Below the pieces are notes generated by a model, which was not told where the DNA came from, ran no database searches, and was given only the letters and a program-made list of their open reading frames with translations. Below are positions 6,534 to 45,637 of a DNA stretch of 64,000 nucleotides, piece by piece (the stretch's first letter is position 1; every line of letters starts with the position of its first letter). The DNA lies in NCBI GenBank assembly GCA_001189195.1, contig LFCQ01000006.1:56841-120840 (forward strand), read 5' to 3'. The translations under genes were made by a program, and so were the position numbers. Origin of the DNA: Parcubacteria bacterium C7867-007 (GTDB lineage: Bacteria > Patescibacteriota > Minisyncoccia > Phycocordibacterales > Phycocordibacteraceae).

Positions 6534-6914
6534 TTGGACGAAATTGATATCAACCTCGGTCGTCGTTTGCGTCGCCGTCGCCGTCTGTTGGGTCTGACCC
6601 AACAAGAACTCGCACATGCAAGTGGGGTTCGATTTCAGCAGATCCAGAAGTATGAGTGTGCCGCGAACCGCATGAGTGCCGCTCGTCTCTGGCAACTCGC
6701 TGAAGTTCTGGAGGTCCCGGTCTCCTACTTCTACGAGGGCCTCACCCGTAATCAACGGGAAGCTCTGGAACAGGAGACGGTCTCGTCAGCGAACGCAGCC
6801 ATGGCTAGCAAGGAGACGCAGGACCTGATCCATGCGTACTACAAGCTCGGAGAACGTCCTCGGCGACGCCTCCTCGATCTTGCTAAAGCCATGAACGGCG
6901 AGGTCGAAGCGTAG
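6534..6914 (+). CDS. XRE-family HTH transcriptional regulator, PraR/PhrR-like (TTG start, GGAGAG SD)
   Basis: RLRRRRRLLGLTQQELA...GVRFQQIQKYE...SAARLWQLAEVLEVPVSYF; about 60% GC. Confidence 0.75.
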   Translation: MDEIDINLGRRLRRRRRLLGLTQQELAHASGVRFQQIQKYECAANRMSAARLWQLAEVLEVPVSYFYEGLTRNQREALEQETVSSANAAMASKETQDLIHAYYKLGERPRRRLLDLAKAMNGEVEA

Positions 6915-6934: not shown

Positions 6935-6965
6935 CCGGCGGCCCCAAGGGTCGCCGGTTCTTTTG
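6935..6965 (+). terminator. intrinsic terminator CCGGCGGCCCCAAGGGTCGCCGG + TTCTTTT
   Basis: GC-rich hairpin with T tract; identical copy at 7332-7362. Confidence 0.8.
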
Positions 6966-7022
6966 TGAAAAGAAGGAATCATTGCTTTGAGCAAGAAAAG
7001 TGTTACAGTCCATTCAGGTTTT

Positions 7023-7037
7023 ACATCAGTTCGATGT
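7023..7037. promoter_or_regulatory. operator-like palindrome ACATC-AGTTC-GATGT upstream of XRE regulator 2
   Basis: same architecture and spacing as 6498-6512. Confidence 0.45.
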
Positions 7038-7059
7038 GACGAATGAGCGGGAGAGTGTT

Positions 7060-7308
7060 TTGGAAGATATCAATTTGCATGTCGGAAGGCGTATGCGCAT
7101 ACGCCGTCGTCTGGCAGGTTTCTCTCAGCAACAGGTTGGGGCTAAGTGTGGGGTGACCTTCCAGACGGTCCAAAAGATGGAATCTGGTCAGGTCGACATT
7201 TCGATAAAGCGACTCTGGAAACTCAGTGAGGTATTGGGTGTCCCCATAACCTACTTCTTCGATGGATACGGTGAAACTGATGACGGTTCTCCAGTAACCT
7301 CCTCGTAA
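7060..7308 (+). CDS. XRE-family HTH transcriptional regulator, paralog of 6534..6914 (TTG start; the ORF track extends it to 7000)
   Basis: nucleotide-level conservation with copy 1, including the GGGAGAGTGT-TTG ribosome-binding region. Confidence 0.7.
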   Translation: MEDINLHVGRRMRIRRRLAGFSQQQVGAKCGVTFQTVQKMESGQVDISIKRLWKLSEVLGVPITYFFDGYGETDDGSPVTSS

Positions 7309-7331: not shown

Positions 7332-7362
7332 CCGGCGGCCCCAAGGGTCGCCGGTTCTTTTT
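7332..7362 (+). terminator. intrinsic terminator, duplicate of 6935-6965
   Basis: identical hairpin CCGGCGGCCCCAAGGGTCGCCGG + T tract. Confidence 0.8.
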
Positions 7363-7770: not shown

Positions 7771-8688
7771 ATGAAAAACATAACCACTCCTGCAGTAGCG
7801 CTCGCGGTACTTATTGCCGCAACTCCATTCGCTGCATTTGCAGAAAGCATGGTAGTAGAGGGTAGTGCGGGCGGAGATCTGCGCATAGACCAGCCGATTA
7901 AAGGTGAAAACATTGCCCCGCTATATATACAGGGGAAGCCAATTATAAAGGTTCGTGAGGGCGCATCTTCAACCATTCAGATACGAGGTGCAGAGAAAGT
8001 TGAACAGAAGCGTCCAGAGCCTGCGATGGTAAAAGCAAAGGTTGCTGCAGCTGCAGATACTGGAATCGATGCACGTATTCAGAAGCTCAATGATGTACTT
8101 ATCCGTTTAGATAAGACTGAACGTCTTTCAGACAGTGCACGTGCATCTATTAAAGCAGCCGTAACTGGCCAGATTCAATCATTGAAAGATGTGAAAGTTA
8201 AGATTGAGACAAACAGCACTAGCACGGTGAAGGAAAGGATGAATACCGCCAATCAACCCTTCCGTGCTGCGGGCCTCATCCTGCCAAAGGCAGCAATCAC
8301 CGCTGCAGCAGATCGCATCATGACGATCGCAGGACAGATGGAAGTATTCTCAGCAAAGATCGAAGCACGTATTGATGCTGCGTCTGCTGCAGGTACCGAT
8401 GTATCAGCGGCACGTACGGCACTTGCAAACTTTGATGCAAAGGTTGCTAGCGCAAAGGTGAATGCACAAGCAGCTGCAAAACTCGTTGCCACTGTTTCTG
8501 CGGACAAAGAAGCGGATGAAGCGACCTTCAAAGCAAATGTTGCAGCACTTAGAGAGGCAAAGTTAAAGATTGATGCGGCACAAGCAGACCTAAAGGCTGC
8601 GCGTACTGAGATCGGTAACCTCCTTAAGAGTATTAAGGGCAAGGGAGAAGTACGTGCTGATGCGTCGGTTAAAGCATCCGCTCAATAA
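7771..8688 (+). CDS. secreted Ala-rich coiled-coil protein
   Basis: signal peptide MKNITTPAVALAVLIAATPFAAFA followed by Ala/Lys-rich heptad-like sequence. Confidence 0.5.
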   Translation: MKNITTPAVALAVLIAATPFAAFAESMVVEGSAGGDLRIDQPIKGENIAPLYIQGKPIIKVREGASSTIQIRGAEKVEQKRPEPAMVKAKVAAAADTGIDARIQKLNDVLIRLDKTERLSDSARASIKAAVTGQIQSLKDVKVKIETNSTSTVKERMNTANQPFRAAGLILPKAAITAAADRIMTIAGQMEVFSAKIEARIDAASAAGTDVSAARTALANFDAKVASAKVNAQAAAKLVATVSADKEADEATFKANVAALREAKLKIDAAQADLKAARTEIGNLLKSIKGKGEVRADASVKASAQ

Positions 8689-9217: not shown

Positions 9218-9291
9218 TGCGGGATCGTCTAATGGTAGGACTACGGTTTCTGGTACCGTCTATCTAGGTTCGAGTCCTAGTCCCGCAGCCA
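9218..9291 (+). tRNA. tRNA-Gln (anticodon CTG) with encoded CCA
   Basis: acceptor TGCGGGA/TCCCGCA, anticodon stem ACGGT/ACCGT with loop TTCTGGT, T arm CTAGG-TTCGAGT-CCTAG. Confidence 0.75.
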
Positions 9292-9314
9292 GTGTTTAGT
9301 GCTACTCTTACAGC

Positions 9315-10085
9315 ATGGAAATTGATCAGCACAAGAATAAGTTCGGGAGCCAGGCTGAGAACTATACAAAATATCGACGACCATACATGAGTGAAGTGTA
9401 TGATCTTCTTTTCTCATTAGTACCAGAAGACAGTAAAAGGATTCTCGATATCGCATGCGGTACCGGTAAATCAACTGAGCCACTATTACGCTCGGGCCTT
9501 GCAGTTGATGGGGTCGATATTGATCCGTTGATGATCGACGAAGCAAAGGGTCAGGCTAAGGTAAAGAATTTAGATATTACGTATGCGGTTTCAGAAGTTG
9601 AGCACCTTCCATATGAAGACGGAAGCTTTGACGTGGTAACGGTTGGCACCGCATTCCACTGGTTTGTAAACGAGACGGCAATGAATGAGATAAAACGAGT
9701 ATTGAAAAAGGACGGTCTGCTGTTCGTGTACTGGACTCTCACCACCAAGGATGTACCAGAAGAGGATGCGATACCTGCTGCAATCTTTAGGGAATTTAAT
9801 TGGGAGAAAGTTCCATCGGAATTACGTGATCTTGAATACATATCATCTTTTTTCAAGGAACAAGACATGCAGAATGTTTCCACTGAACGCCTCCCATTTA
9901 CGCACAATGATTCAGTAGAAGACCAGGTCGGACTTATGAAGACTGCCTCAAGCTATGAGGTATTGCCCGAGGAAGACAAAGAACGCTTCATAGCAGCAAT
10001 TCAGGCAGCTCTTACTGAACAGTTGGGAAGTCGTCCCTATTTTATCTATGAGGAAGAAATACAGGTTTGCTACGGGTACAGGTAG
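9315..10085 (+). CDS. class I SAM-dependent methyltransferase
   Basis: ILDIACGTGKST motif I, DIDPLMID motif II. Confidence 0.7.
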   Translation: MEIDQHKNKFGSQAENYTKYRRPYMSEVYDLLFSLVPEDSKRILDIACGTGKSTEPLLRSGLAVDGVDIDPLMIDEAKGQAKVKNLDITYAVSEVEHLPYEDGSFDVVTVGTAFHWFVNETAMNEIKRVLKKDGLLFVYWTLTTKDVPEEDAIPAAIFREFNWEKVPSELRDLEYISSFFKEQDMQNVSTERLPFTHNDSVEDQVGLMKTASSYEVLPEEDKERFIAAIQAALTEQLGSRPYFIYEEEIQVCYGYR

Positions 10086-10093
10086 ATAAAAAG

Positions 10094-10140
10094 ATCCCCA
10101 CGTCGTACCAAACCCCACAGCTCGCTAACTATAGTCATCA
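10094..10140. repeat. intergenic linker repeat copy R1 (CCCCACGTCGTACCAAACCCCACAGCTCGCTAACTATAGTCATCA)
   Basis: shares the core CCACGTCGTACCA.ACCCC.CAGC with copies at 10840, 11402, 11903, 12844, 13455 and 20111. Confidence 0.7.
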
Positions 10141-10201
10141 CATTTAAATAAAAAGAAGCCGCCCGGAGCGTGGCGGAGATACTCCGGACGCTTCCAAGCG
10201 G

Positions 10202-10462
10202 CTAATCAAAATCATTCTTCAGCCACCCATCTTGTTCGCTGAGGAATTCGAATTCTTCCACACCGACTCCGATGGTGACCTCAATGTGTGGGTTTTCTTC
10301 ATCAAATTCAAGGTGGTGTGCAATGGCCTCAACCAGCCACCCAATGATGCCCTTGAGAAAGATCGTATCTCCTACCCGAGGCAGAACGGGCCACGAGTAG
10401 TCTTTGGTGAGATAGCGATCCGAACCCTCAGGATCCGGAACAACGAGAACGAATTTAATCAT
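10202..10462 (-). CDS. hypothetical protein (86 aa)
   Basis: ORF only. Confidence 0.35.
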   Translation of the reverse strand: MIKFVLVVPDPEGSDRYLTKDYSWPVLPRVGDTIFLKGIIGWLVEAIAHHLEFDEENPHIEVTIGVGVEEFEFLSEQDGWLKNDFD

Positions 10463-10514
10463 GGGTCAGACCCTTTGTTTCCTAAATAATTTATACACTA
10501 TTTAAACTAATAAG

Positions 10515-10557
10515 TCAAATACAGCCTAGATACTTGATTTTGGTTCGAATATCGTCC
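10515..10557. repeat. second intergenic repeat family (TCAAATACAGCCTAGATACTTGATTTTGGTTCGAATATCGTCC)
   Basis: about 85% identical to 13417-13460. Confidence 0.6.
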
Positions 10558-10620
10558 TAGACTGCCAGCTCGTATTTTTCATACCTTTATGTTTAGATTC
10601 CTTTAGAAAGGAACCATACG

Positions 10621-10788
10621 ATGCACACACCTCCCGAGTTTGACGAAGCTATGGTTGAGGCACCAAAGCCGGAAAAGTCGCCGGAGCCCGGGTCTGACGA
10701 ATATTACGCAGTGCTCGGAAGAGAGATCGACAAGGGCCCGATCGGTGTTCCTCACCACCGAGGTCCGTTATCGGGCCCAATAGATTGA
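10621..10788 (+). CDS. small hypothetical protein (55 aa), GC-rich, with GAAAGGAAC RBS
   Basis: ATG with upstream AGGA and terminator hairpin immediately downstream; not in the ORF track because it is under 60 aa. Confidence 0.4.
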   Translation: MHTPPEFDEAMVEAPKPEKSPEPGSDEYYAVLGREIDKGPIGVPHHRGPLSGPID

Positions 10789-10792
10789 ACTA

Positions 10793-10866
10793 GGAGCCGC
10801 CAGTACCGAAAGGGAACGGCGGCTCTGCTACTTAAGCAAGGTTCCCACGTCGTACCAACCCCCAGC
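10793..10866 (+). repeat. linker module R2: terminator hairpin GGAGCCGCC..GGCGGCTC + TACTTAA + core GGTTCCCACGTCGTACCAACCCCCAGC
   Basis: about 85% identical to module at 12796-12870. Confidence 0.75.
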
Positions 10867-10891
10867 ACGTCATCTGTGTCATAATCTTTTA

Positions 10892-11398
10892 ATGCGTGTA
10901 ACCATTCTCGGACTTCCTGGAAGCGGCAAGTCCACTTTGGCTCGAAAGATTTCAGAAAAGCTAAATATTCCATATATACATATAGATCGTTTCTGGCTTG
11001 AAGCGGGAGGTGGGCACAATAGCAAAACTACACCTGATCCTGAAAAGGCACATGCAAATGTACGAGAGAAAGTCCTTGAAGCGATACAAGCTGAGTCGTG
11101 GGTATCAGATGGGGTATATCGCCTTGTACAGCCAGAGATAGCAAATAGGGCAGATGCAGTTGTATTTCTTGATATTCCGCTTTGGGAACGATTACTTAAT
11201 CACGCGGCCCGCACCATACACAGAAAGAGTCGACATGATGAGATGACTTTCTGGGGCGATATGAGTTTCTTTCTTGAAATAGTAAGTCGTGATTTACGGA
11301 AGAAAGGGAAAATACAGAGTCTGGTTGAAAGCTATAAGTCTAAGGCAATCATTCTGAAATCCCGTAAGGCGATAGCAAACTACCTTGGAACTCTTTGA
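10892..11398 (+). CDS. P-loop NTPase, adenylate-kinase / topology-modulation-protein-like
   Basis: MRVTILGLPGSGKSTLARKISEKLNIPYIHID Walker A start. Confidence 0.6.
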   Translation: MRVTILGLPGSGKSTLARKISEKLNIPYIHIDRFWLEAGGGHNSKTTPDPEKAHANVREKVLEAIQAESWVSDGVYRLVQPEIANRADAVVFLDIPLWERLLNHAARTIHRKSRHDEMTFWGDMSFFLEIVSRDLRKKGKIQSLVESYKSKAIILKSRKAIANYLGTL

Positions 11399-11401
11399 TT
11401 A

Positions 11402-11462
11402 GGGTTCCCACGTCGTGCCAAACCCCCAGCACTTGACTTTTAATGCATTTAGTGCTATTAAT
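11402..11462 (+). repeat. linker module R3: core GGTTCCCACGTCGTGCCAAACCCCCAGC followed by TTGACT-N17-TATTAAT promoter
   Basis: repeat core directly followed by sigma70-like -35/-10 for the next gene. Confidence 0.7.
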
Positions 11463-11507
11463 AATACAGATCAATCGGCTCGTTGAGCCCACTACTGGAG
11501 ACTTCAA

Positions 11508-11804
11508 ATGAATCCTCGAAATACAACGCTTCTTGCGCTCTCGGCAGTTGCAGCGGCGGTGTTTGCTCTGGTCCCGATCATCGGCATCATGTACAACGGA
11601 GCTACGGCCCAGCTTCTCGAGATGTTCGGTGAAGCTATGGGCTGGGAGTGGCTCGATCACCGCCATCCACACAGCCTTGCCGTCGCTTGGGTGATCTTCA
11701 CCCTGATCTTCTTCTTCGCCCTCAAGCTGTGGTTGAAGTTCGGGAAGCGAGAAGACCCTCTCGTTCGCCTCTTTCGGGAGGCAGGCGGGGAAAAGCGTCA
11801 GTAG
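11508..11804 (+). CDS. small membrane protein (98 aa), GC-rich
   Basis: two hydrophobic helices. Confidence 0.4.
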   Translation: MNPRNTTLLALSAVAAAVFALVPIIGIMYNGATAQLLEMFGEAMGWEWLDHRHPHSLAVAWVIFTLIFFFALKLWLKFGKREDPLVRLFREAGGEKRQ

Positions 11805-11854
11805 CGCGAATCCACCAGCTAGCATCAAACGGCTCACCCAATATGCCGAAATGG

Positions 11855-11945
11855 GAGCCCCGCACCAGTATGCGGGGTTTTACATACATCAGTGCTCGAG
11901 TATCGTACCAAACCCCCAGCAATTGACTTTTATATAATATCGTGT
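11855..11945 (+). repeat. linker module R4: terminator CCCCGCACCAGTATGCGGGGTTTT + core TCGTACCAAACCCCCAGC + TTGACT promoter
   Basis: same organisation as R2/R3. Confidence 0.7.
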
Positions 11946-11996
11946 TATTTAAATAGAACCAGTTCTTTGCGTATCAAAAAGAGAAGGAAATAGACC

Positions 11997-12791
11997 ATGT
12001 CAAAAGACATGCTCGGCCCGCTTCCGCGGGCTCTCGTTCAGGTGCCGAACAGGCATCACGGTCTCGTACTGGACATTCTCCACAAGCTCGCAGGTGGGCA
12101 GGGGGATTCCGTGCGAAGTAATCTGAGTGCGGCACTTCGGGCACCATCTGAACCTGTGCGGCAGCAAGCTCCGCCGGTCGTACCTATTACGGATGTACCT
12201 GCGGAGTATCGAGCGTTTTTCGAAGCTCTGCCGCCGCTGGATCGTCAGTGGGTGCTCGAGAATCCCCGTACTGCCGTTCCGCTATTCGCACGAGCTGTTG
12301 CTACGGCGCATATCGAGAGCTATCCCTTGGTGCTTGTCGGGACCGCCGACTTTGCTGAAATCAGTGAATTCCGTCCTGCTGAGAAATATCAGCCAGGACA
12401 GCAAATCGACGGCATTCTAATATCACCGCAAATGCATAAGAGCTTCAAGGAGCTTTGCCAGACGGTTGAGCACAACACGCCTGCTGCGACACTGAGATTC
12501 CATTCCTCAAATACCAAGGCCAAAGCATCCAGAATTCTGAGTAGCTTCGGCGACAAGGCAGACACCACGCTCGGCCAGCTCTGGGAATTGATCCAACGGG
12601 AAGAGAAGGATGATCTCCTTCAGGCCAGCCTGCACACGACCATCTACATGTGTTTCCGTAAGGCCGACGGCAACCGTTGTTACGTCTCTGCTTCGTACGC
12701 ACCAGACGGCTGGTACTTCCGGGTGAGGTTTGGTGAGACTGGCTACCATGGGAGGCCCCCGAATAAGGTCGACCGCTTTATCACTCACTGA
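11997..12791 (+). CDS. hypothetical protein (264 aa), about 60% GC
   Basis: ORF with GC-rich codon usage distinct from backbone. Confidence 0.45.
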   Translation: MSKDMLGPLPRALVQVPNRHHGLVLDILHKLAGGQGDSVRSNLSAALRAPSEPVRQQAPPVVPITDVPAEYRAFFEALPPLDRQWVLENPRTAVPLFARAVATAHIESYPLVLVGTADFAEISEFRPAEKYQPGQQIDGILISPQMHKSFKELCQTVEHNTPAATLRFHSSNTKAKASRILSSFGDKADTTLGQLWELIQREEKDDLLQASLHTTIYMCFRKADGNRCYVSASYAPDGWYFRVRFGETGYHGRPPNKVDRFITH

Positions 12792-12795
12792 ACAA

Positions 12796-12890
12796 GGAGC
12801 CGCCTGTTTCCGAAAGGGAACGGCGGCTCTTCTACTTAATATAGGTTCCCACGTCGTACCACACCCCCAGCTCGCAAACTATAGTCATCG
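12796..12890 (+). repeat. linker module R5: terminator hairpin + TACTTAA + core GGTTCCCACGTCGTACCACACCCCCAGCTCGCAAACTATAGTCATCG
   Basis: near-duplicate of R2; 3' part matches R1. Confidence 0.75.
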
Positions 12891-12948
12891 TAGGTAAAAA
12901 GAAACCGCCCGAACCGTAAGGAACGGGCAGTTCCTTTGGTTCGGGCAG

Positions 12949-13359
12949 TCATGGTGCCGGATCGGCAAGTGCCTTAGGTACCCCATACATGTTCCACTTG
13001 TCGTCGAAGCGGATGGCGAGGTTCGTCGTCTGTTCGGGATACGCTCTGTGGACGGACCACTTCAGCATCTCGAACAGTATCGGGGTCATCACGTGATTTC
13101 GGAAGTGAGCGAAATTCACGTATGGGTTGATCCCCATGGGCATGTCGTTCGCTTCGTGCATCCCCTCATGTTCAGTCTTCACCTGATCGTAGAGGATAGC
13201 GATCGCTTTCTGTTCAGTCGTCGCCACGCCGATCAGGACGGAGTTCGGCTGACGCTCCAGCAGACGCTTCGGGGGCGGACCCAGTATGTGCCTAGAGGAC
13301 ATGAGCCCCGATAGGCGCTCATGCATCTCTGCAGTGATTAGTTGCATATCTTCTGCCAA
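12949..13359 (-). CDS. hypothetical protein (136 aa), GC-rich
   Basis: ORF; terminator-like hairpin GCCCGAACC..GGTTCGGGC downstream on minus strand. Confidence 0.4.
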   Translation of the reverse strand: MAEDMQLITAEMHERLSGLMSSRHILGPPPKRLLERQPNSVLIGVATTEQKAIAILYDQVKTEHEGMHEANDMPMGINPYVNFAHFRNHVMTPILFEMLKWSVHRAYPEQTTNLAIRFDDKWNMYGVPKALADPAP

Positions 13360-13416
13360 CGTACTCTCCCTAATTCAAATTCAACCTAAGTGTATTTTAA
13401 CATCTATTGTATAAAA

Positions 13417-13492
13417 ATCAAATATGGCCTAGACACTCGATTTCGGTTCGAATATCGTACCACACCCCACCTCGTCATCGTAGCTGTATAAT
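13417..13492 (+). repeat. linker module R6: second-family repeat + degenerate core TCGTACCACACCCCACCTCGTCATCGTAGC + TGTATAAT
   Basis: matches 10515-10557 and the core family; extended -10 sits 7 nt before ATG at 13500. Confidence 0.6.
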
Positions 13493-13499
13493 TTAGGAT

Positions 13500-13865
13500 A
13501 TGAACAAAACATCTAAACTTATTCTCGTCGCAGTAATTGGAATAATCGTTGGTGCCGGAGGTACTTTGGCTCTATCACCAAAGAATAATACTCAACCTGA
13601 AATGATTTCTCATGGAAACATGAATATGCAGGGAGAAATGGGGAGAATGGCTCAGGTCCTCGAAGGGAAGACCGGTGATACGTTCGACCAAGCATTTTTA
13701 AGCGAGATGATCGTACATCACCAGGGCGCTGTTCAGATGGCTCAAGCTGCACTTCAGAACGCAAAGCATCAGGAGATTAAAGATCTCGCTACAAAGATTA
13801 TCTCGGCACAAGAGTCAGAGATTATCGAAATGCAGGGTTGGCAGAAGAGCTGGTACGGACAGTAG
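13500..13865 (+). CDS. DUF305 (ferritin-like) domain protein with N-terminal TM
   Basis: MIVHHQGAVQMAQAAL...ISAQESEIIEMQGW motifs. Confidence 0.6.
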   Translation: MNKTSKLILVAVIGIIVGAGGTLALSPKNNTQPEMISHGNMNMQGEMGRMAQVLEGKTGDTFDQAFLSEMIVHHQGAVQMAQAALQNAKHQEIKDLATKIISAQESEIIEMQGWQKSWYGQ

Positions 13866-13930
13866 GAGAGATTCCCAAGGGTAAGGCCGTCTCAAATGAG
13901 ACGGCCCACGTACGCTTTGGTTTGTACTTG

Positions 13931-14458
13931 CTACTCGATACGGATTGGTCGAACAATAGGTATTCGAATCCGTAGCATATTCTCTGCACGTGCACCGAAC
14001 TGAGTTCGAAGTCCACTCACGCCATCGGTGAAATACTTAGCATACACATTCACGGCATTGAAGTTGAGTGCATATGCCCACACCACAAAGGTGAGATGGC
14101 TTTCAATCCGATCGTTGCTTTCCTTCGTCCACGTCAGGAGTGCCTGCATGCATTCCTGTATGAGACGTGGAGCAAGTCCTTTGCCTTGGTGTGCGGGAAG
14201 GATGCCGATCTGATCCAGCTCTATAACTGGTTCAGCACGGTGGAATCCTCCATGCAGTTGCCAACCTGCGTATCCCACCACCACGTCATCTTCTTCAACC
14301 ACAAAGTACTGGTAGAGGGGGAATGCATTGAACCAGCACGTAGCCCATCGCTGGGCTCCATCAAACTGGTCACGATCTCCCAGGAAGACGCTTCCGTTGA
14401 TGAGGCCAATGGCCTCGAGGTCCCGTTCTTCGGCACGCCGAATATTGATGGTGCTCAT
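13931..14458 (-). CDS. GNAT family N-acetyltransferase
   Basis: LDQIGILPAHQGKGLAPRLIQE acetyl-CoA binding motif. Confidence 0.75.
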   Translation of the reverse strand: MSTINIRRAEERDLEAIGLINGSVFLGDRDQFDGAQRWATCWFNAFPLYQYFVVEEDDVVVGYAGWQLHGGFHRAEPVIELDQIGILPAHQGKGLAPRLIQECMQALLTWTKESNDRIESHLTFVVWAYALNFNAVNVYAKYFTDGVSGLRTQFGARAENMLRIRIPIVRPIRIE

Positions 14459-14514
14459 GATTCTTCTCCCTGCTTCTATTCTCTAGAACCGCACATACAC
14501 CTTTTGGTTACTAT

Positions 14515-14553
14515 AAATAAAAAACCGCCCCCTCGCGCCAACGAAGGGGTTAG
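14515..14553 (-). terminator. intrinsic terminator for minus-strand gene 14582..14911
   Basis: hairpin CCCCTCG..CGAAGGGG followed on minus strand by TTTTTTATTTAT. Confidence 0.55.
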
Positions 14554-14581
14554 GCTTCGTTGCAACAAAGTGACGGATACG

Positions 14582-14911
14582 CTATCTCATTGCTGAGGGC
14601 ACCAAGGACACAAGGTCCTGGGCGGTCATGCCCAGAGCGTTGGCGAGGTTGAGTGTGTTGACCAACATCTTCGTAGTCGCCATGCGCAGAGCTTCTGGAT
14701 CAAGCTCGCCGCCGTGGTCGTAGTTCTCAGCCTGCGCAGCAATTATGCCTCCGGTCTTGGCTATGTGCGCACTGCTGTGCCGTACAGCGAAGGCCAATGT
14801 CTTTTCAGGTGTGCTGAGATCCCCATTTGGGTACTTCTCTTGGGTGAAGGGGAATCCATCCCCGATCACCTGCATCAACGAAGTGAGATCGGTAGTTGGT
14901 GTCATGGTCAT
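14582..14911 (-). CDS. MazG-like nucleotide pyrophosphohydrolase family protein (tentative)
   Basis: about 109 aa all-alpha pattern STPEKTLA...LVNTLNLANALG resembling small MazG-like proteins. Confidence 0.4.
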   Translation of the reverse strand: MTMTPTTDLTSLMQVIGDGFPFTQEKYPNGDLSTPEKTLAFAVRHSSAHIAKTGGIIAAQAENYDHGGELDPEALRMATTKMLVNTLNLANALGMTAQDLVSLVPSAMR

Positions 14912-15040
14912 GGAACGCTCCTTGTCTGGATGGAAGGTACCACAAAACTATCTAAGCCTCCAACATAGATAAACAGGGATGATGGTGTCGTCTCTGTGCA
15001 TGTATTCGCACATGCATTGCGGAGGATATACACTAACACT

Positions 15041-15430
15041 ATGCCTGCAGAACTGCGTAAAGCGCTTACTCTAAATCCTAGAGCAAAAGTGAAGTGGGAT
15101 CTCCTTACCCCAATTAGCAAAAGAGACTTCATCACCTGGATAGAGTCTGCAAAACAGGATGCTACTCGTGTTCGTAGAGTGAGCAAGGCAGTGGACATAC
15201 TTATAAAAGGAAAGCGTCGTCCTTGTTGTTATGCAGTGGTGCCGATGAATCTGTACAAGACTCTTAATGAGCTCCCAAAAGCAAAGGCACAATGGAAAGA
15301 TCTCACTCCCGATGAGAAACGAGACTTTGTTGCCTGGATAGACTCTGGAAAGGACGCAGGGGTACGTGCACAGCGTATTGAGAAAACAAGCATTCTGCTC
15401 CTTAAAGGGAAACGACGAGCATCTATATAA
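15041..15430 (+). CDS. YdeI/OmpD-associated family protein (PF13376-like) with internal duplication
   Basis: two repeats of WDLLTPISKRDFITWIESAK / WKDLTPDEKRDFVAWIDSGK. Confidence 0.6.
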   Translation: MPAELRKALTLNPRAKVKWDLLTPISKRDFITWIESAKQDATRVRRVSKAVDILIKGKRRPCCYAVVPMNLYKTLNELPKAKAQWKDLTPDEKRDFVAWIDSGKDAGVRAQRIEKTSILLLKGKRRASI

Positions 15431-15435
15431 AAGAA

Positions 15436-15478
15436 ATCGCCTGGCGTGTGAGGATGCAATCCTCACACGCCAGGCGAT
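15436..15478. terminator. bidirectional terminator (ATCGCCTGGCGTGTGAGGATGCAATCCTCACACGCCAGGCGAT)
   Basis: long perfect inverted repeat between convergent genes. Confidence 0.7.
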
Positions 15479-15491
15479 CAGTCCCAACTCC

Positions 15492-16223
15492 CTATTTCGG
15501 AGTACAGATGTGGATGTAGTCTCCATAGCCGGAATCGTGATCCGGCCAGGGTTGAATGGTGATCACACTGCCGAAGTGGCGTTGAAGCGGCTCAAGCCGT
15601 TGCTTGAGTGATGTCTTGAACTCTTCCTTCAGGACATCGTTGTACAGGATATCTATCGTCCACTTGATGACTTGATCGGTGGCGCCATTCCTGATGGCTT
15701 CAAGCAGATACTCGTACCCCAGCCTGCTAGCAGCGAGCCTCCGTTCAGTTTCCGTGTTGAAGTCTTCGACGTAGCAGTCGGAGATCACCACCACGCCACC
15801 CGGCTTAACCATGCTGGCGATATTGGCGATTGCCGCTTCCTGTTGCGCATACGGTACATGATGCAGAGAGCCCGTGCAGACCACGGTGTCGAAGAGTCTC
15901 CGGGGTTGCCAGTTGAGTACGTCACCGACGAAAAACTCAACTCCCAGATACCGATCTCTTCCGAAACGGACGTATCGCTTGTCCAGATCCATGCCTGTCA
16001 ACCACAGATCCGAACGACCCTCCTGGAGCTTTCCAAGCAGATAGCCGGGTCCGCACATAATATCGAGTACGCTTCCGTTCAAGGGAGTACGTTCCAAGAC
16101 CTTCGCGGTGACAAGTTCTAGCGAGAGCCTATAGGGCCAATACCCAAGACTTTCTTCGTACAGTTCGGCTTCTGGTAGGGGATTCATTTGGGGACCCTCC
16201 TCAGGTCTTACTATGAATGACAA
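15492..16223 (-). CDS. class I SAM-dependent methyltransferase
   Basis: VLDIMCGPGYLLGKL motif I; VVCTGSLHHV. Confidence 0.7.
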   Translation of the reverse strand: MSFIVRPEEGPQMNPLPEAELYEESLGYWPYRLSLELVTAKVLERTPLNGSVLDIMCGPGYLLGKLQEGRSDLWLTGMDLDKRYVRFGRDRYLGVEFFVGDVLNWQPRRLFDTVVCTGSLHHVPYAQQEAAIANIASMVKPGGVVVISDCYVEDFNTETERRLAASRLGYEYLLEAIRNGATDQVIKWTIDILYNDVLKEEFKTSLKQRLEPLQRHFGSVITIQPWPDHDSGYGDYIHICTPK

Positions 16224-16294
16224 ATAACGTTCGAGTGCAGAATACCACTTATTTCAGATATATCCAGATTATTAAGAATTGCTATAGTTTCACT

Positions 16295-16723
16295 ATGAAG
16301 CAGCAGGATTTCACAAAGCGACTCACCATAGTAGTTCGTACGGATATTGAGTCATGGCAGGGAGCAAATACTATTGCCCACATTGCGGGATATGTAGGAA
16401 ATAAGTTAGGAGAAGCTTTTGATACAGGAACGTATTTCATCACCGCAGATGGTGTGGAGCTTCCAAGAAATTCTCAGTATCCAATGATAATTAAAGCTGC
16501 TCAATGCGCTACAGATATACGGGATGCGTATGACATTATTCGTACTCACGATCTAATACACATCGGATTCATACGGGAAATGATAGAAACTAGTGATGAT
16601 TCTGAAATAGAAACCATCCTTAAGGATAAGAAGCATAAAGATATTGAGTTGCTAGGTTTCGGGGTCTTTGGAGAGAATGAGACCGTGAAAGAACTTACCA
16701 AACAATTTACGCTTTGGAAGTAG
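16295..16723 (+). CDS. DUF2000-like protein (tentative); TATAGT box 6 nt upstream of ATG
   Basis: TIVVRTDIESWQGANTIAHIAGYVG resembles DUF2000 N-terminus. Confidence 0.4.
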   Translation: MKQQDFTKRLTIVVRTDIESWQGANTIAHIAGYVGNKLGEAFDTGTYFITADGVELPRNSQYPMIIKAAQCATDIRDAYDIIRTHDLIHIGFIREMIETSDDSEIETILKDKKHKDIELLGFGVFGENETVKELTKQFTLWK

Positions 16724-16760
16724 TTGTTCAATTTTCCTAAAATCAAGCTATAGTGCATCT

Positions 16761-17378
16761 ATGATAAAGGCAGTCATATTTGATTCAGACGGGATGCTCT
16801 CGCACGGCCCAAGGTTTAGCGATACGTATGCGAGAGAACAGAATATTCCTATTGAGGAAATGATCCCTTTCTTCACAGGCCCTTTCAAAGACTGTCTTAT
16901 CGGAAAAGCAGACCTAAAAGACGAGCTTGAAAAGGGAGACTGGCTCCAAAAGTGGGGTTGATCAGACTCCGTTGATGCGTTTCTTGCATACTGGTTTTCG
17001 GTCGGGGACCAACTAGATGAGAAGGTGTTTGCTTCCATTCAAGAACTCCGTAGTGCGGGGGTTATGGTGGTGCTTGCAACGAATCAAGAGAAATACCGCA
17101 CCGCATATCTTTCTGAGAAGTTTAATTACGAATCTGCGTTCAACAGAATATTCTCTTCGGCACATACCGGACACAAGAAACCAAGTGCGGAATTCTTTCA
17201 GAAGATTCTTGAATATCTCCAAGAGCAAGATGCTTCAATCACTAAGGACAATATTCTCTTTTGGGATGATGATATAGAAAATGTAGAGGGAGCTGCTATG
17301 TTCGGTATTGTGTCTGAGCAGTTTCTAGATGAAAAGGGGTATCGAACCAAAATGGCTGAGTACGGAATACTTAATTAG
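16761..17378 (+). pseudogene. HAD-superfamily hydrolase interrupted by an in-frame TGA at 16959-16961
   Basis: VIFDSDGML (motif I) in the first ORF and ILFWDDD (motif IV) in the second ORF, same frame, separated by a single TGA. Confidence 0.6.
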
Positions 17379-17911
17379 GTTTTAAATTTGAATAGAGGTT
17401 TCTTAAGAAGGTACATAACTAGAATCGCACTGACTATTCCAACAACACCCCCTGCAATCATATCGGAAGGGTAGTGAACGCCTGCAGCAACTCGGGCTGC
17501 ACAAACGAGGACCGTACAGATATAGAACACAATACCGAGGGTTCGGTTATAGAAAAAGACTATGGTTGAAAATCCAAACAGGAACGATGCGTGTCCTGAT
17601 GGGAAGGAGGGTGCTTCGATAATAAAGAGATGCGTTATATCCATTGCTGCTAAAGGGCGGTCCCGAGGAAAGAAGAATCGTATGGGACTCGTAACAGCAA
17701 AGCGAGCAATACTGCCAGCAAGTAGTGCAAGTAAAAAGGCGACTATCTTCGATCGATGTGAAAGTTCCTTTTTATATACAAGATAGAGTGCAAACCACCC
17801 CACCAGAATAAAGGGAAGGTATGTAGCAAAGAAGACAATAACAGCATCAGATACCGGACCTTGCCCAGCAAAGGAGTTTAATACATTGAACACATATAGA
17901 TCCAAAGACAT
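17375..17911 (-). CDS. PAP2-family phosphatase
   Basis: PSGHASFLFGFS and SR...GVHYPSD PAP2 motifs. Confidence 0.75.
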   Translation of the reverse strand: MSLDLYVFNVLNSFAGQGPVSDAVIVFFATYLPFILVGWFALYLVYKKELSHRSKIVAFLLALLAGSIARFAVTSPIRFFFPRDRPLAAMDITHLFIIEAPSFPSGHASFLFGFSTIVFFYNRTLGIVFYICTVLVCAARVAAGVHYPSDMIAGGVVGIVSAILVMYLLKKPLFKFKT

Positions 17912-17953
17912 AAATGCAGCGTACTACAGATTTGTGTATGAGTATGCCTGTAT

Positions 17954-17986
17954 AACAAAACACCCCGCTGTGCGGGGTGTTTTGTT
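17954..17986. terminator. bidirectional terminator AACACCCCGCTGTGCGGGGTGTT
   Basis: perfect hairpin flanked by A/T runs. Confidence 0.65.
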
Positions 17987-18200
17987 ATGAGTGTGCCGGT
18001 ACCGGTTTACGAACGCTTGTGGCGTACGGCCCTTTCAGGCTCTTCGTAACGAGGAAGGCGAGCTTGTCACCGATGCGTAGATCCGTGAAGGAAACATCAA
18101 TGAGATCGCTTGCGTCGAAGAATAGTTCTTCGTCTGAGCCCTCCTGCTTTATGAAGCCAGAACTCCGTTCACTGAAACTTGAAATGGTTCCTGTGCGCAT
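17985..18200 (-). CDS. cold-shock domain protein
   Basis: GTISSF..SGFIKQEG...ELFFDASDL CSD pattern. Confidence 0.7.
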   Translation of the reverse strand: MRTGTISSFSERSSGFIKQEGSDEELFFDASDLIDVSFTDLRIGDKLAFLVTKSLKGPYATSVRKPVPAHS

Positions 18201-18229
18201 GAGATGAGCATTACACTGATAAGAGAATA

Positions 18230-18254
18230 AAAAGCGTCCATGAGGACGCTTTTT
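18230..18254. terminator. bidirectional terminator AAAAGCGTCCATGAGGACGCTTTTT
   Basis: perfect hairpin with flanking A/T runs. Confidence 0.7.
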
Positions 18255-18255
18255 A

Positions 18256-18462
18256 TTAAACCTTGCTAACGTTTACTGCGTTCTTCTTTGCAGGATCGTT
18301 CTTGCTTGGAGCGATCTCGAATTCGAGAGTGTCCCCAGGGTTGAGGTCATCAATACGAACGTTTACGAGCTCGTTAGCGTGAAAGAAGAGATCTGGCTCT
18401 CCTTCGATCTTGATAAAGCCGAAGCCTTTTGGATTAATTCCTGCGATAGTTCCTGTTTGCAT
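18256..18462 (-). CDS. cold-shock domain protein (start MQTGTIAG)
   Basis: GTIAGINPKGFGFIKIEGEPDLFFHANEL. Confidence 0.75.
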   Translation of the reverse strand: MQTGTIAGINPKGFGFIKIEGEPDLFFHANELVNVRIDDLNPGDTLEFEIAPSKNDPAKKNAVNVSKV

Positions 18463-18638
18463 AATATGTATGAGCGATGCACCTGATAACAATCAAGTGC
18501 AGGAGGTTCAACTCGACGAGTTAGACTCATACCGATACTGCCCAGCGCTGCGATTGATATTCCCAATTTACCATTTCAGAGATCGATTGTCAATTTAGGG
18601 TCGTACTCCAGTCTTTGTTTTGCTATAGTGTGCACATT

Positions 18639-19526
18639 ATGACCTATCAGGTGCTGCTTTTCTATAAGTACATAACCATTGAAGATCCAGCAGCTCTGGC
18701 GGATCATGTGCGTTCCCTTGCGCAGAAACATTCACTTCTTGGTCGTGCACTTATTGCAGAAGAAGGTATCAATGCCACTTTTGAGGGAGAGGTCTCAGCT
18801 ACCGAGGCATTCGCTGCAGAGTTTCTCACAGACCCACGTTTTGCAGACATGCAGATAAAGCGGAGCGAAGGGGATGGTGCTGCTTTCCCAAAGCTTGCGG
18901 TGAAGGTACGTGAGCAAATCGTAGGAACACGTTTTTCAAAGGAGAAAGCAGATCCTCGTGTACAGACTGCACCACGTATTCAGCCTGAAGAACTTAAACG
19001 GTGGTTTGAAGAAGCAGAGGACTTCACTATCATTGATATGCGCAACGACTACGAGTATCGTTCCGGTCATTTTAAGGGATCGATAAACCCTGAGCTTGAG
19101 AATTCACGTGATCTTCCCGATGCGATGCCAAAACTCATGCCACTTAAAGAAAAGAAAGTCCTCACCGTGTGTACCGGGGGAGTACGCTGTGAATCAATGA
19201 GCGCATACCTTATGAGTGAAGGCTTCACTGATGTGTATCAGCTTGAGAATGGGATGCATGGCTATATGGAGAAGTACCCTGGAGAGGATTTCCTAGGAAC
19301 GCTCTATACTTTTGATCGTCGCAAGGTGATGGACTTCGGTGGTGAGAGAGAAGTGATTGGTACTTGTCATCGTTGCCAGGGGAAAACAGAGAAGTATACA
19401 AACTGTGCAAATGATCTGTGTCACCTACATTTCCTGGTGTGTGACGATTGTTCCCGCGAGGACGGAACGTATTGTTCTGAGAGCTGTGAGAAGATGCTTT
19501 CATCAGCTGGAAAACTCGAGTCTTAG
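18639..19526 (+). CDS. trhO: rhodanese-domain tRNA U34 hydroxylase TrhO (YceA/UPF0176)
   Basis: MTYQVLLFYKY..., rhodanese active-site C in CTGGVRCE, C-terminal Cys cluster; TATAGT 9 nt upstream of ATG. Confidence 0.75.
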   Translation: MTYQVLLFYKYITIEDPAALADHVRSLAQKHSLLGRALIAEEGINATFEGEVSATEAFAAEFLTDPRFADMQIKRSEGDGAAFPKLAVKVREQIVGTRFSKEKADPRVQTAPRIQPEELKRWFEEAEDFTIIDMRNDYEYRSGHFKGSINPELENSRDLPDAMPKLMPLKEKKVLTVCTGGVRCESMSAYLMSEGFTDVYQLENGMHGYMEKYPGEDFLGTLYTFDRRKVMDFGGEREVIGTCHRCQGKTEKYTNCANDLCHLHFLVCDDCSREDGTYCSESCEKMLSSAGKLES

Positions 19527-19555
19527 CCCTTTAGCAAGTATGTTAGTCTGAAAAT

Positions 19556-20101
19556 ATGAAAAGGGTATTTATAGTACTCATAGCCTCTCTACTACTTTTA
19601 GTACTCGGTTTCTTTGTTATTAGCTCGTATATCTACAATAAGAAGCAGGATCCGAGTGAGTCTTCAGGGAACACCTCATTATCTGAGGGGTGCCCTTATG
19701 GAGATTACTACACTCTTACAAAAGGGAATGAAGAGTATAAAAACAGCAAGCGGGGCTACAGTCTTGTGTTGCCAAAGGATTATTATTTTCCTACAAATGA
19801 AGAGAACGAGAACGAATCAGACCCGCACTTCTACGATTGCGTAGCAGGAATTGGCTTTGAGTTACAAGACGGTACACGCTCATTTGAAGAGCTTAGCGCA
19901 AGGCAGGATACAGAAACAATAATCACTACCTCTGTATTTCCGGGAGCAACAATATCAGGTGGTAAATACACAGGAGATTATACGAAAGGATGGGATTATA
20001 TCTACACAGTTGTATATTCAAACGAAAAGAGAGGCTTTGTTTTTGCATCAAATCGTCCAATTAGTGAGTATGTCTTTTTAAGTACATTCAAGATTTTCTA
20101 A
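19556..20101 (+). CDS. hypothetical secreted/anchored protein; AT-rich
   Basis: N-terminal anchor LVLGFFVISSYIYNKKQ shared with the 37605 protein. Confidence 0.45.
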   Translation: MKRVFIVLIASLLLLVLGFFVISSYIYNKKQDPSESSGNTSLSEGCPYGDYYTLTKGNEEYKNSKRGYSLVLPKDYYFPTNEENENESDPHFYDCVAGIGFELQDGTRSFEELSARQDTETIITTSVFPGATISGGKYTGDYTKGWDYIYTVVYSNEKRGFVFASNRPISEYVFLSTFKIF

Positions 20102-20110
20102 ATTAATCTA

Positions 20111-20131
20111 GTTCCCACTTCGTACAAAACC
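20111..20131. repeat. degenerate linker repeat copy R7 (GTTCCCACTTCGTACAAAACC)
   Basis: matches the core of R2-R5. Confidence 0.45.
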
Positions 20132-20148
20132 TCAAGCTTAACTAACCT

Positions 20149-24762: not shown

Positions 24763-24795
24763 TTTCAGTCCTGTACACAGGCTACTGTTGACGTT

Positions 24796-24809
24796 CGAAC
24801 AATTGTTCG
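24796..24809. promoter_or_regulatory. LexA box (Cheo-type) CGAACAATTGTTCG inside a TTGACG-N18-TATACT promoter
   Basis: perfect match to CGAAC-N4-GTTCG consensus between -35 and -10 of lexA. Confidence 0.65.
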
Positions 24810-24823
24810 ACTATACTGTTTCT

Positions 24824-25390
24824 ATGGAAATGAGCCGACACAGGAAGGTATTGTCCTTCTATAAGAAACATAAGCGTATGCCCTCTATAACGGAGATTAT
24901 GGCTATATTTGGCCTCTCTTCACGCAGTAGCGGGTTCTATGTAACAAACCAGTTAGTGCGCGAAGGTATTGCAGAGAAGGATAGTACCGGAAAGCTCATT
25001 CCTGGCCCGGACCTATTTACGCTTCCGGTACTCGGTCACATTCGTGCCGGATTTGCTGCACCTGCAGAAGAAGAACTTGCAGACACTATTACCATCGGTG
25101 ATTACCTCCTAGGACGACCTGAAGCGAGCTACCTACTAAAAGTGGAAGGTGACTCCATGCAAGATGCCGGTATACAGGAAGGAGACATGGTGGTGTTTGA
25201 GCGCACCAATGATTACAAACCAGGGGACATTGTTGTTGCTCTCACAGAAGATGGATACACCCTCAAGTATCTGCGCAAGAAACCGAATGGATATTATCTG
25301 GAGGCAGCTAACGATAAGTATCCAGATATACATCCGCGAGAAGGTTCTATTATTGGTGTCGTCGTATCAACATTTCGTACCTATGGCTAA
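24824..25390 (+). CDS. lexA: LexA repressor
   Basis: S24 peptidase domain with catalytic GDSM...K, N-terminal winged HTH; TATACT 6 nt upstream of ATG. Confidence 0.85.
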   Translation: MEMSRHRKVLSFYKKHKRMPSITEIMAIFGLSSRSSGFYVTNQLVREGIAEKDSTGKLIPGPDLFTLPVLGHIRAGFAAPAEEELADTITIGDYLLGRPEASYLLKVEGDSMQDAGIQEGDMVVFERTNDYKPGDIVVALTEDGYTLKYLRKKPNGYYLEAANDKYPDIHPREGSIIGVVVSTFRTYG

Positions 25391-25572
25391 ACTCTCTACC
25401 TTCGATCCGTTCTTCAGCATGTATCTACGTACACCCGCGCGTCATACCACTACACGCCACACATCACAGTTTGCATCCTTCACAGAACGGGAACGGCGAT
25501 ACCTCTCTCCTAAACGTATGATCCCACTATCTCTGCGTTCTGAACGTGTGTCCGCACGTCAATCAGTGGTTC

Positions 25573-30007: not shown

Positions 30008-30016
30008 GACGTGTGG

Positions 30017-44079: not shown

Positions 44080-44114
44080 CCTGCAAGAGCGAAGGATAAT
44101 GCTACCATTTCTTC

Positions 44115-44708: not shown

Positions 44709-44718
44709 AGAGACTTAG

Positions 44719-45555: not shown

Positions 45556-45637
45556 ACCTAGACTATACTCTGCGGCCCCGTTTTTGCGATATACTCTATA
45601 CAACCAGATCTCTGGCAAGTAAAGAACCACAGAAACT

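Follow-up and report, generated by a model that had tools for sequence, protein, structure and literature searches.

Layout of the island

The window analyzed here is a 64,000-nucleotide stretch of the metagenome-assembled genome of Parcubacteria bacterium C7867-007 (contig LFCQ01000006.1, positions 56,841 to 120,840; coordinates below count from its first letter). Between 9.2 and 20.1 kb, 3' of a tRNA-Gln(CTG) gene, it holds an island of small accessory genes punctuated by copies of a 28-nt element. This is probably a tandem-accretion island of recombinase-less modules, built at tRNA-Gln by elements that carry a large serine recombinase (LSR), with the 28-nt sites representing the P-arm half-sites of their attP.

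Eight copies of the element, all intergenic, on the plus strand and 3' of tRNA-Gln, are detected between 10093 and 20137 when the 64 kb are scanned with a position-weight matrix built from 34 copies pooled over all loci (R1 to R7 and a site termed R'; Table 1). The same scan gives no copy on the minus strand and none elsewhere in the window. The 18-nt core of the repeat is matched six times in the window against 0.12 matches expected by chance; the repeat, first noticed in a first-pass annotation made from the sequence alone, is non-random. Together, the tRNA gene and the eight sites span 10.9 kb and mark off seven short units (from the tRNA to 13472) and one 6.7-kb distal block (13473-20137), in which no site of 12 bits or more is found at 13473-20109. 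The same window sequence is present in two other assemblies of one metagenome sample, which makes an artifact of a single assembler unlikely.

Pfam supports most of the genes named in the first pass, including two methyltransferases, a P-loop kinase, GNAT, YdeI/OmdA, DUF305, DUF2000 and a split HAD hydrolase; a MazG-like call (14582-14911) finds no Pfam support. The distal block holds the genes for DUF305, GNAT, a 109-aa open reading frame (ORF), YdeI, a methyltransferase, DUF2000, the split HAD and PAP2, together with two cold-shock genes, rhodanese/UPF0176 and a 181-aa ORF. The HAD gene (16761-17378) is divided by a stop codon into ORFs of 66 and 117 aa and is probably a pseudogene. Composition is mosaic, as had been stated, with a measured gene GC of 39-57% where jumps between about 40% and 60% had been given; GC at third codon positions (GC3) ranges over 35-70%. 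No recombinase is encoded in the window according to Pfam searches of about 50 ORFs and tblastn with serine and tyrosine recombinase queries, again as first reported. At its gathering threshold, Rfam finds only four tRNAs in the window.

The near-identical hairpins described in front of R2 and R5 are indeed 90% identical over 58 nt (T1 and T2), with a predicted fold of -14.4 kcal/mol (z = -2.25, T2 folded). Within hairpin T, GTTTCC...GGGAAC repeats in inverted form the GTTCCC motif found at the 5' end of R. This inverted repeat, and the identity of T plus R between genomes with unrelated or little-related adjacent proteins, suggest that the hairpin may be more than a terminator. Promoters had been placed after R2, R3 and R4. 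TTGACT-N17 motifs can be recognized by eye after R3 and R4, but the consensus scan lists neither, and R2 is followed by an extended -10-like TGTGTCATAAT, unlike the sequence after R3 and R4. Promoter-like matches are not enriched in the region by the consensus scan (14 against 15 expected). Directly 3' of R1 stands CTCGCTAACTATAGTCATC, as it does 3' of R5.

Alleles of the site and their likeness to the tRNA end

The element occurs as two alleles of equal length, R (RGTTCCCACGTCGTACCAAACCCCCAGC) and R' (NGTTCGAATATCGTCCCAGACGGCCAGC), which differ at 8 positions that change together. The columns common to both are GTTC at 2-5, A at 8, TCGT at 11-14, CCA at 16-18, AC at 20-21 and CCAGC at 24-28. 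A third allele, R'' (GGTTCTAACTTCGTCCAGTCCCCGCAGC), is known from relatives. The six core copies and one degenerate copy of the first-pass annotation are all present, but those at 11893 and 13445 agree with R in the right half only. Both are hybrids in which an R' left half is joined to an R right half at the invariant TCGT; no such hybrid is seen in the other loci compared. Likewise, the second repeat family of that annotation has its two copies (family D7, 10512-10562 and 13415-13465, 82% identical), but its core at 10542-10569 is the same-length allele R' and not a separate family. The part to the left of this site (10512-10541) is the conserved divergent-promoter part of D7.

The site resembles the 3' end of tRNA-Gln with the outer GGTTC moved 5 bp farther out, so that GGTTC to CAGC covers 28 nt in R, R' and R'' and 23 nt in the tRNA. 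With this shift, the comparison covers GGTTCNA on the outside and 16 inner nt, and 10-14 of these 16 positions agree. Among the roughly 128,000 28-mers of the window, a score of at least 16/23 is reached only by the tRNA, by R' (19) and by the R copies (16). In LSR systems, the minimal attB is about 10 bp shorter than attP, and the motif bound by the zinc-ribbon domain lies 5 bp nearer the center in attB half-sites (PMC3783163, Rutherford et al. 2013). Judged by this spacing, the 28-nt site has the format of an attP-type (P-arm) half-site of an LSR, and the tRNA end that of the attB-type arm.

The tRNA end and the sites also share what follows them. In two related loci (L006 and L018; loci in other genomes carry L numbers throughout), the tRNA end ...CGCAGC continues into a AATTGACTTTT module that is also found after many R and R' sites. 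Taken over the other genomes, this module follows tRNA-Gln, R, R' and R'' sites alike, indicating that the tRNA end and the sites are interchangeable left-hand partners.

A serine recombinase at tRNA-Gln in related genomes

C7867-008, the sister genome, has the same DUF1761 gene and tRNA-Gln and, directly after them on the opposite strand, a gene for a 537-aa LSR whose last five codons are encoded by the tRNA-Gln 3' end. The protein contains Resolvase, Recombinase and Zn_ribbon_recom domains, all above the Pfam curated cut-offs, and matches the A118 integrase structure 4KIS. Its family comprises 2915 relatives at E below 1e-30. The four further relatives that were looked up have the same junction, in which ...CC(C/G)CAGC is joined to A(A/T)NC..GGATTTT..GAGTAGATTTCTCC. 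In C7867-008 and these four, the LSR gene of about 540 aa abuts the tRNA-Gln 3' end in 4/5 cases and a 28-nt site in 1/5. The LSR abuts tRNA-Gln(CTG or TTG) in L028, L041-L043 and L044. It abuts an R''-type site in L033, where the true tRNA-Gln lies 6.3 kb beyond, with LSR-less cargo between. A recombinase gene beside an att site is found in C7867-008, L028, L033 and L041-L044, and not in the window, which shares the 5-bp half-site shift.

Both boundaries of such an element, attL and attR, are found in two of these relatives (L044 and C7867-008; not in the window). L044 carries an element of about 8.9 kb with the tRNA-Gln/LSR junction at one end and a 28-nt site (AGTTCCAACTTCGTCCAAGACCCCCAGC, L044:2788) at the other, after which host genes including Ham1 resume. 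The LSR element of C7867-008 is 13.2 kb long; its far end is R'' at L012:4978, and an array of R and R' cassettes begins directly beyond. In L019, an R site is joined to a 184-nt remnant of the 3' end of an LSR gene, with R'' 1.35 kb farther on. The observed or reconstructed attP, that is, a 28-nt site plus the LSR end, exhibits weak dyad symmetry (11-14 of 27-28 arm positions, p ~0.002-0.07), which favors a crossover in the 2 nt just after CAGC.

Several further features of these elements can be recorded. The 13.2-kb element of C7867-008 is composed of L025:10570-20438 and L012:1-5000, and besides the LSR and core genes it carries CsoR, a copper ATPase, HMA/DsbD, cupredoxin, DsbB, DsbA, a CDF transporter, an M23 peptidase and the abortive-infection gene AbiU2. 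A related copper module lies 5' of R'' in L005 and beside a kinase unit in L051. At L044:8482-11659, a tyrosine integrase (380 aa, PF00589) and an HTH_17 excisionase-like gene stand directly upstream of the serine recombinase, so this element has two recombinases. Directly 5' of R''-type sites there is a conserved flank of about 20 nt (GATTTACCAGCCAATAAAAC) in L012 (4958-4977), L033, L044, L019 and L005, which lies outside the expected half-site of about 26 bp. A search of viral contigs for LSR relatives returned only proteins that are 33-39% identical.

Strain breakpoints and recurrent units

The pattern scan for the element, in which each species is represented by one genome, gave 13 matches. 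Of these, 8/13 are chance matches inside GC-rich genes; the real ones come from two Saccharibacteria metagenome-assembled genomes (L005, L006) and from the sister assembly C7867-008 (L010, L012). The metagenome scan yielded 5 loci only and added L017-L020. Further arrays are found in L010, L012, L018 and L019. At every locus, R and R' occur intermixed in arrays, always between genes and in a single orientation, and they are locus-specific in 8 other loci too, with a median site spacing of 642 bp (n = 28). Tandem units 3' of a single target, with co-oriented att repeats and in part without a recombinase, are present in the window and in L010, L012, L018, L019 and L033.

The intergenic modules (the site, hairpin T, the promoter-like AATTGACTTTT... 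and CTCGCWAACTWTAGTC) are 80-95% identical between genomes, and the intervening genes are not related in their DNA sequence. The 76-nt block of T, spacer and R, for example, is 92-95% identical to modules in L005, L006 and L018, where the adjacent proteins are unrelated or 38% identical. In line with the first-pass interpretation, the repeat flanks different genes in related genomes in both the genome and the metagenome scans.

Two pairs of loci reveal presence/absence polymorphism with breakpoints at the repeats. L006 and L018 are 100% identical over 855 nt that comprise tRNA-Gln, a 208-aa gene, hairpin T and R. Exactly after ...CCCCCAGCA, this match breaks off. Past this point, L018 continues with an array of at least 5 more sites and L006 with an ABC-ATPase gene; judged from L006, the L018 array is predicted to end with a site followed by ACGTTATAGTAAGG and the ABC-ATPase gene. 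The second pair, L051 and L052, encodes an identical P-loop kinase and is 98.2% identical over 1959 nt from the R site on, and unrelated upstream. Gene content thus changes exactly at the repeat between strains, which bears out the earlier view of an insertion or cassette hotspot beside tRNA-Gln. A related arrangement is seen in L005, where R'' is followed by AATTGACTTTC and a 195-aa gene; in L006 and L018 it is tRNA-Gln that is followed by AATTGACTTTT and the homologous 208-aa gene. From their sequences, L005 and L006/L018 read as the occupied and the empty state of one site. Exact-protein look-ups of the genes that flank the island in the window returned the same strain only, so these strain comparisons come from relatives and not from the window.

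The kinase unit of the window (10838-11431, R2-gene-R3) recurs at L051:688-1282 with 79.9% nucleotide identity from site to site. Homologs of the kinase lie between R-like sites in L045, L051 and L052 with 85-87% amino acid identity; in L045, the unit is 2.7 kb 3' of tRNA-Gln(TTG), has an R-like site directly after it and has different neighbors. The window, L045, L051 and L052 present four different neighbor sets. This recurrence from site to site indicates that a site-bounded single-gene unit behaves as a discrete module. The single-gene size of the units is the unusual feature of the island.

Around these arrays, L045 also carries CBASS-like genes (CD-NTase/SMODS; L045:7244-11305; CBASS, cyclic-oligonucleotide-based antiphage signaling system) between tRNA-Gln(TTG) and the kinase unit, and an insertion sequence fragment (rve) inserted directly after the R-like site. 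A YkuD transpeptidase gene with two neighbors (43600-45816 in the window) flanks the array in L010, is near the array in L006 and lies 24 kb away from it in the window, from which it appears that gene order around the island has been rearranged between sister genomes.

Probable tandem accretion and alternative explanations

The arrangement is best accommodated by the following scheme. An LSR element would integrate beside the 3' end of tRNA-Gln, joining the tRNA end to the recombinase gene (attL) and leaving the element's own 28-nt site at the far end (attR). Repeated tRNA-proximal integrations would push older units outward, and loss of the recombinase part would reduce them to stacked modules without a recombinase, with a 28-nt site at the end of each. 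We infer the action of an LSR on R and R', the order of events and the manner in which units form from the site format and from the situation in relatives.

Several observations weigh against this scheme. The window contains neither an LSR nor, by tblastn, an LSR remnant, so activity on the window copies is putative. At the far end of LSR-bearing elements, only R''-type sites are seen; R and R' are linked to an LSR through their shared format, their position and one junction between R and an LSR remnant. Nor would one predict the hybrids at 11893 and 13445 if crossover took place at the 3' edge of the site. Furthermore, attL and attR differ in the 2 nt after CAGC (AA versus TA in C7867-008 and AA versus CC in L044), a mismatch that points to a crossover inside the invariant CAGC, and no dyad symmetry is seen at the empty tRNA site. 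Recombination of attP with attL or attR, on which tandem stacking depends, is not known from canonical LSRs. The precedent for such events is the staphylococcal cassette chromosome (SCC) with its Ccr recombinases and not the phage integrases.

The scheme could be refined if the units were true gene cassettes, each with a promoter-like 5' end, a gene and a 3' 28-nt site, that are excised as small circles and re-inserted by an LSR acting in trans, the units then not being decay products of larger elements. We treat this refinement as tentative. The median unit of 642 bp has the size of an integron cassette, the kinase unit is found precisely from site to site at 80% nucleotide identity in its four settings, and modules beginning AATTGACTTTT.., TCG.. 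or ACG.. start right at the junction in many genomes. The sites are, moreover, far better conserved than the genes, T plus R being 92-95% identical where the proteins are 38% identical. Yet neither a circle nor a pair of empty and occupied sites is seen for any individual unit, the 2 nt that follow CAGC are not constant from unit to unit, and a search for P'-type (or B'-type) motifs at the unit 5' ends was unconvincing, with low information content 3' of the junction. Viral contigs scanned for R, R' and the LSR-end motif yielded no true match, and the viral and episomal scans were empty. It is possible, though less likely than not, that the cassettes amount to an integron-like system of gene capture by LSR in the candidate phyla radiation (CPR), in which single-gene cassettes with their own expression signals would be moved one by one in trans at tRNA-Gln or at resident sites, with R, R' and R'' as compatibility classes. 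A different origin, which we judge unlikely, would make the sites relics or passive homology patches. Here, RecA-dependent recombination after DNA uptake would use the modules (about 30-110 nt) as anchors, as in the minimal mobile elements of Neisseria, and an LSR would explain only where the sequence came from. The modules do exceed 28 nt (76 nt for T plus R, 30-45 nt for the promoter modules), the R'/R hybrids at 11893 and 13445 are better explained in this way, and the window has no recombinase. However, the breakpoints fall at site edges and are not spread through the homologous modules, relics would not be expected to remain 28/28 identical across species while neighboring genes diverge, and every site has the orientation of the tRNA, regardless of how the neighboring gene is directed.

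The remaining explanations do not involve an LSR. R3 and R4 end 2 nt before TTGACT, and many sites elsewhere are followed by AATTGACTTTT, which would suit a regulatory site of an accessory-gene regulon (activator- or UP-like, just 5' of the -35 hexamer) with no role in recombination. This is very improbable, as R1 and R5 point at the 3' ends of convergent genes and have nothing to drive, the same sequence is also found at the distal boundary of LSR elements and next to the end of LSR genes, and the sites are confined to the tRNA-Gln island in a region where promoter-like matches are no more frequent than expected. We give even less credence to folded single-stranded sites of the integron or repetitive extragenic palindromic (REP) type, served by a tyrosine recombinase or a transposase, although co-oriented sites separated by single ORFs would fit them. 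On either strand, R and R' with their flanks have no stable fold (0 to -4.5 kcal/mol, z -0.3 to +1.9), no inverted core sites are found, the scanned ORFs of the window contain no Phage_integrase domain, two tyrosine recombinase queries give no tblastn match, and the units carry promoter-like ends of their own. Since folding is no better than for shuffled sequence, attC-like and REP-like sites are ruled out, in line with the first-pass statement that the repeat is not attC. A REP or miniature inverted-repeat transposable element family unrelated to gene boundaries, which had been raised as an objection, is likewise rejected: there is no palindromic fold, and the copies are confined to one strand and to 10.09-20.14 kb. 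Three further candidates were discarded. Xer dif/pdif sites (an 11-bp arm, a 6-bp spacer and an inverted 11-bp arm) are also 28 nt long, but the ends of the element are not inverted copies (consensus compared by eye). An array resembling clustered regularly interspaced short palindromic repeats is excluded by genes, rather than spacers, between the sites. Finally, the R/R' differences are not compensatory base pairs, given that a small hairpin of R' is not kept in R.

Comparison with known systems

Tandem accretion by LSRs is familiar from SCCmec, the arginine catabolic mobile element (ACME) and psiSCC, which use CcrAB or CcrC and insert at the 3' end of the conserved gene rlmH, forming serial tandem elements with short direct repeats. 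Recombinase-less units (ACME, psiSCC) persist there and can be mobilized in trans, and integration beside an occupied site occurs. SCC differs from the present island in its protein-gene target, its units of 10-60 kb and its identical cores of 15-18 bp, which lack an evident attP-type spacing difference.

The closest parallel in architecture is provided by the ssrA islands of Dehalococcoides (DsiB serine recombinase), which lie in tandem 3' of an RNA gene and are individually delimited by a copy of the gene end, with a reverse-strand recombinase of about 540 aa at attL (PMC3146451, McMurdie et al. 2011). The system described here likewise targets the 3' end of a small-RNA gene, has a reverse-strand LSR of about 540 aa at attL (in relatives) and includes many units without an integration module. 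In Dehalococcoides, too, extra conserved bases 5' of the repeat do not align with the RNA gene (PMC3146451). The target is tRNA-Gln in a CPR host here and transfer-messenger RNA there. Mostly single-gene units (median 642 bp) contrast with islands of about 12 kb that carry vcrABC (PMC3146451). The repeat does not simply duplicate the gene end but is 28 nt long, with its outer motif displaced by 5 bp, and several alleles (R, R', R'') are mixed in one array.

Accretion of integrative and conjugative or mobilizable elements (ICEs, IMEs) and of cis-mobilizable elements (CIMEs) proceeds by integration, decay to an att-flanked recombinase-less element and new integration at a retained att (PMC5704250). 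This three-step model applies here as well, but CIMEs mostly involve tyrosine recombinases and conjugative elements, and the present units are much smaller; no conjugation or relaxase genes are seen here. The mechanism and element type, which the first-pass annotation regarded as undescribed, therefore have precedents: the site has attP format, an LSR occupies the same tRNA in relatives, and the architecture is known (PMC3146451, PMC5704250). In the literature on Saccharibacteria and CPR, we found no description of such a system.

With integrons and clusters of attC sites lacking integrases (CALINs), the island shares co-oriented sites, mostly single and unrelated ORFs of foreign composition, no need for a local recombinase, and small enzymes and unknowns as cargo. 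It differs in having no IntI, sites that do not fold like attC, a tRNA gene end rather than attI as the primary site, units with their own promoter-like ends and terminators, and a serine recombinase on a mobile element. The phage serine integrases (A118/LI model, PMC3783163) have the same Resolvase, Recombinase and Zn-ribbon domains, the 4KIS match, an attP half-site longer by 5 bp and weak attP dyad symmetry. In contrast, attB is the end of a tRNA gene here, and tandem structures are unexpected from strictly unidirectional integrases. Phage genes are not seen here.

CPR genomes are very small, and few mechanisms of gene gain have been described for them. A tRNA-Gln hotspot fed by LSR elements would explain how accessory genes are swapped; among the cargo of the window and of the related loci are copper resistance, AbiU2, CBASS-like genes, methyltransferases and kinases. 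The natural set of sites, one attB-type tRNA end and three attP-type alleles that differ from it mainly by the 5-bp shift, offers a test of the model for attP/attB discrimination, and the pair of LSR and tRNA-Gln could serve as an integration tool for the genetically intractable Patescibacteria. If single-gene units do move alone, they would constitute a second, mechanistically independent invention of the integron principle.

Feature list and other observations in the window

The features of the island are collected in Table 1.

Table 1. Coordinates of the tRNA gene, 28-nt sites, cargo genes and signals of the island
Feature	Position	Strand	Remarks
tRNA-Gln(CTG)	9218-9291	+	ARAGORN, Rfam; 3' 23 nt (9267-9289, GGTTCGAGTCCTAGTCCCGCAGC) read as attB-type (B-arm) half-site
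Unit 1 cargo, S-adenosylmethionine (SAM) methyltransferase, 256 aa	9315-10085	+	Pfam Methyltransf_11/25
R1, degenerate R site	10093-10121	+	GATCC for GGTTC, 1-nt insertion before CAGC; 21.8 bits; repeat family D17
Unit 2 cargo, 86-aa ORF	10202-10462	-	no Pfam family
R' site (GGTTCGAATATCGTCCTAGACTGCCAGC)	10542-10569	+	35.5 bits; closest mimic of tRNA-Gln 3' end
Unit 3 cargo, 55-aa ORF	10621-10788	+	GC 56%
Terminator-like hairpin T1 (GGAGCCGCC...GGCGGCTC)	10793-10825	+	repeat family D1; predicted fold taken from near-identical T2
R2 site, 27 nt	10840-10866	+	1-nt deletion
Unit 4 cargo, P-loop kinase, 168 aa	10892-11398	+	Pfam; R2-to-R3 block recurs in other genomes
R3 site	11403-11430	+	4 nt 3' of kinase stop codon; 41.8 bits
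Promoter-like TTGACT-N17-TATTAA	11433-11461	+	directly after R3; by eye, not listed by consensus scan
Unit 5 cargo, 98-aa ORF	11508-11804	+	GC 57%; no Pfam family
R4, hybrid site	11893-11920	+	R'-like left half (TGCTCGAGTATCGT), R right half; 33.9 bits
Promoter-like TTGACT-N17-TATTTA	11923-11951	+	directly after R4; by eye; repeat family D10
Unit 6 cargo, 264-aa ORF	11997-12791	+	GC 56%; no Pfam family
Terminator-like hairpin T2	12796-12829	+	~90% identical to T1
R5 site	12844-12871	+	followed by CTCGCAAACTATAGTCATC; 41.8 bits
Unit 7 cargo, 136-aa ORF	12949-13359	-	GC3 70%; minus-strand promoter-like site at 13421-13394
R6, hybrid site	13445-13472	+	R' left half (GGTTCGAATATCGT), R right half, degenerate 3' end; 26.5 bits
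Distal block, 13 genes	13500-20101		no internal site; mosaic composition (Pfam, GC)
R7, degenerate R site	20110-20137	+	distal edge of island; 30.1 bits

The 305-aa gene 5' of the tRNA (7771-8688) was considered as a novel recombinase and rejected, as its product is a secreted Ala-rich coiled-coil protein. Farther upstream, two XRE/HTH_3 paralogs (6534-6914 and 7000-7308) with 46% amino acid identity each precede one copy of a perfect 30-nt terminator-like repeat (6935-6964 and 7332-7361). On a Logan contig of the same strain (L022), no gene is called at the position of the second paralog, which suggests a recent tandem duplication or a strain indel. Beyond the island, a gene for a LexA-like S24 peptidase adjoins one for a DinB/IMS translesion polymerase (24788-26886), in what looks like an SOS-type pair in a reduced genome. 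It is followed at 26891-31567 by an efflux pump of the resistance-nodulation-division type (ACR_tran, 1038 aa) with a membrane-fusion protein (516 aa); pumps of this family are best known from double-membrane bacteria.

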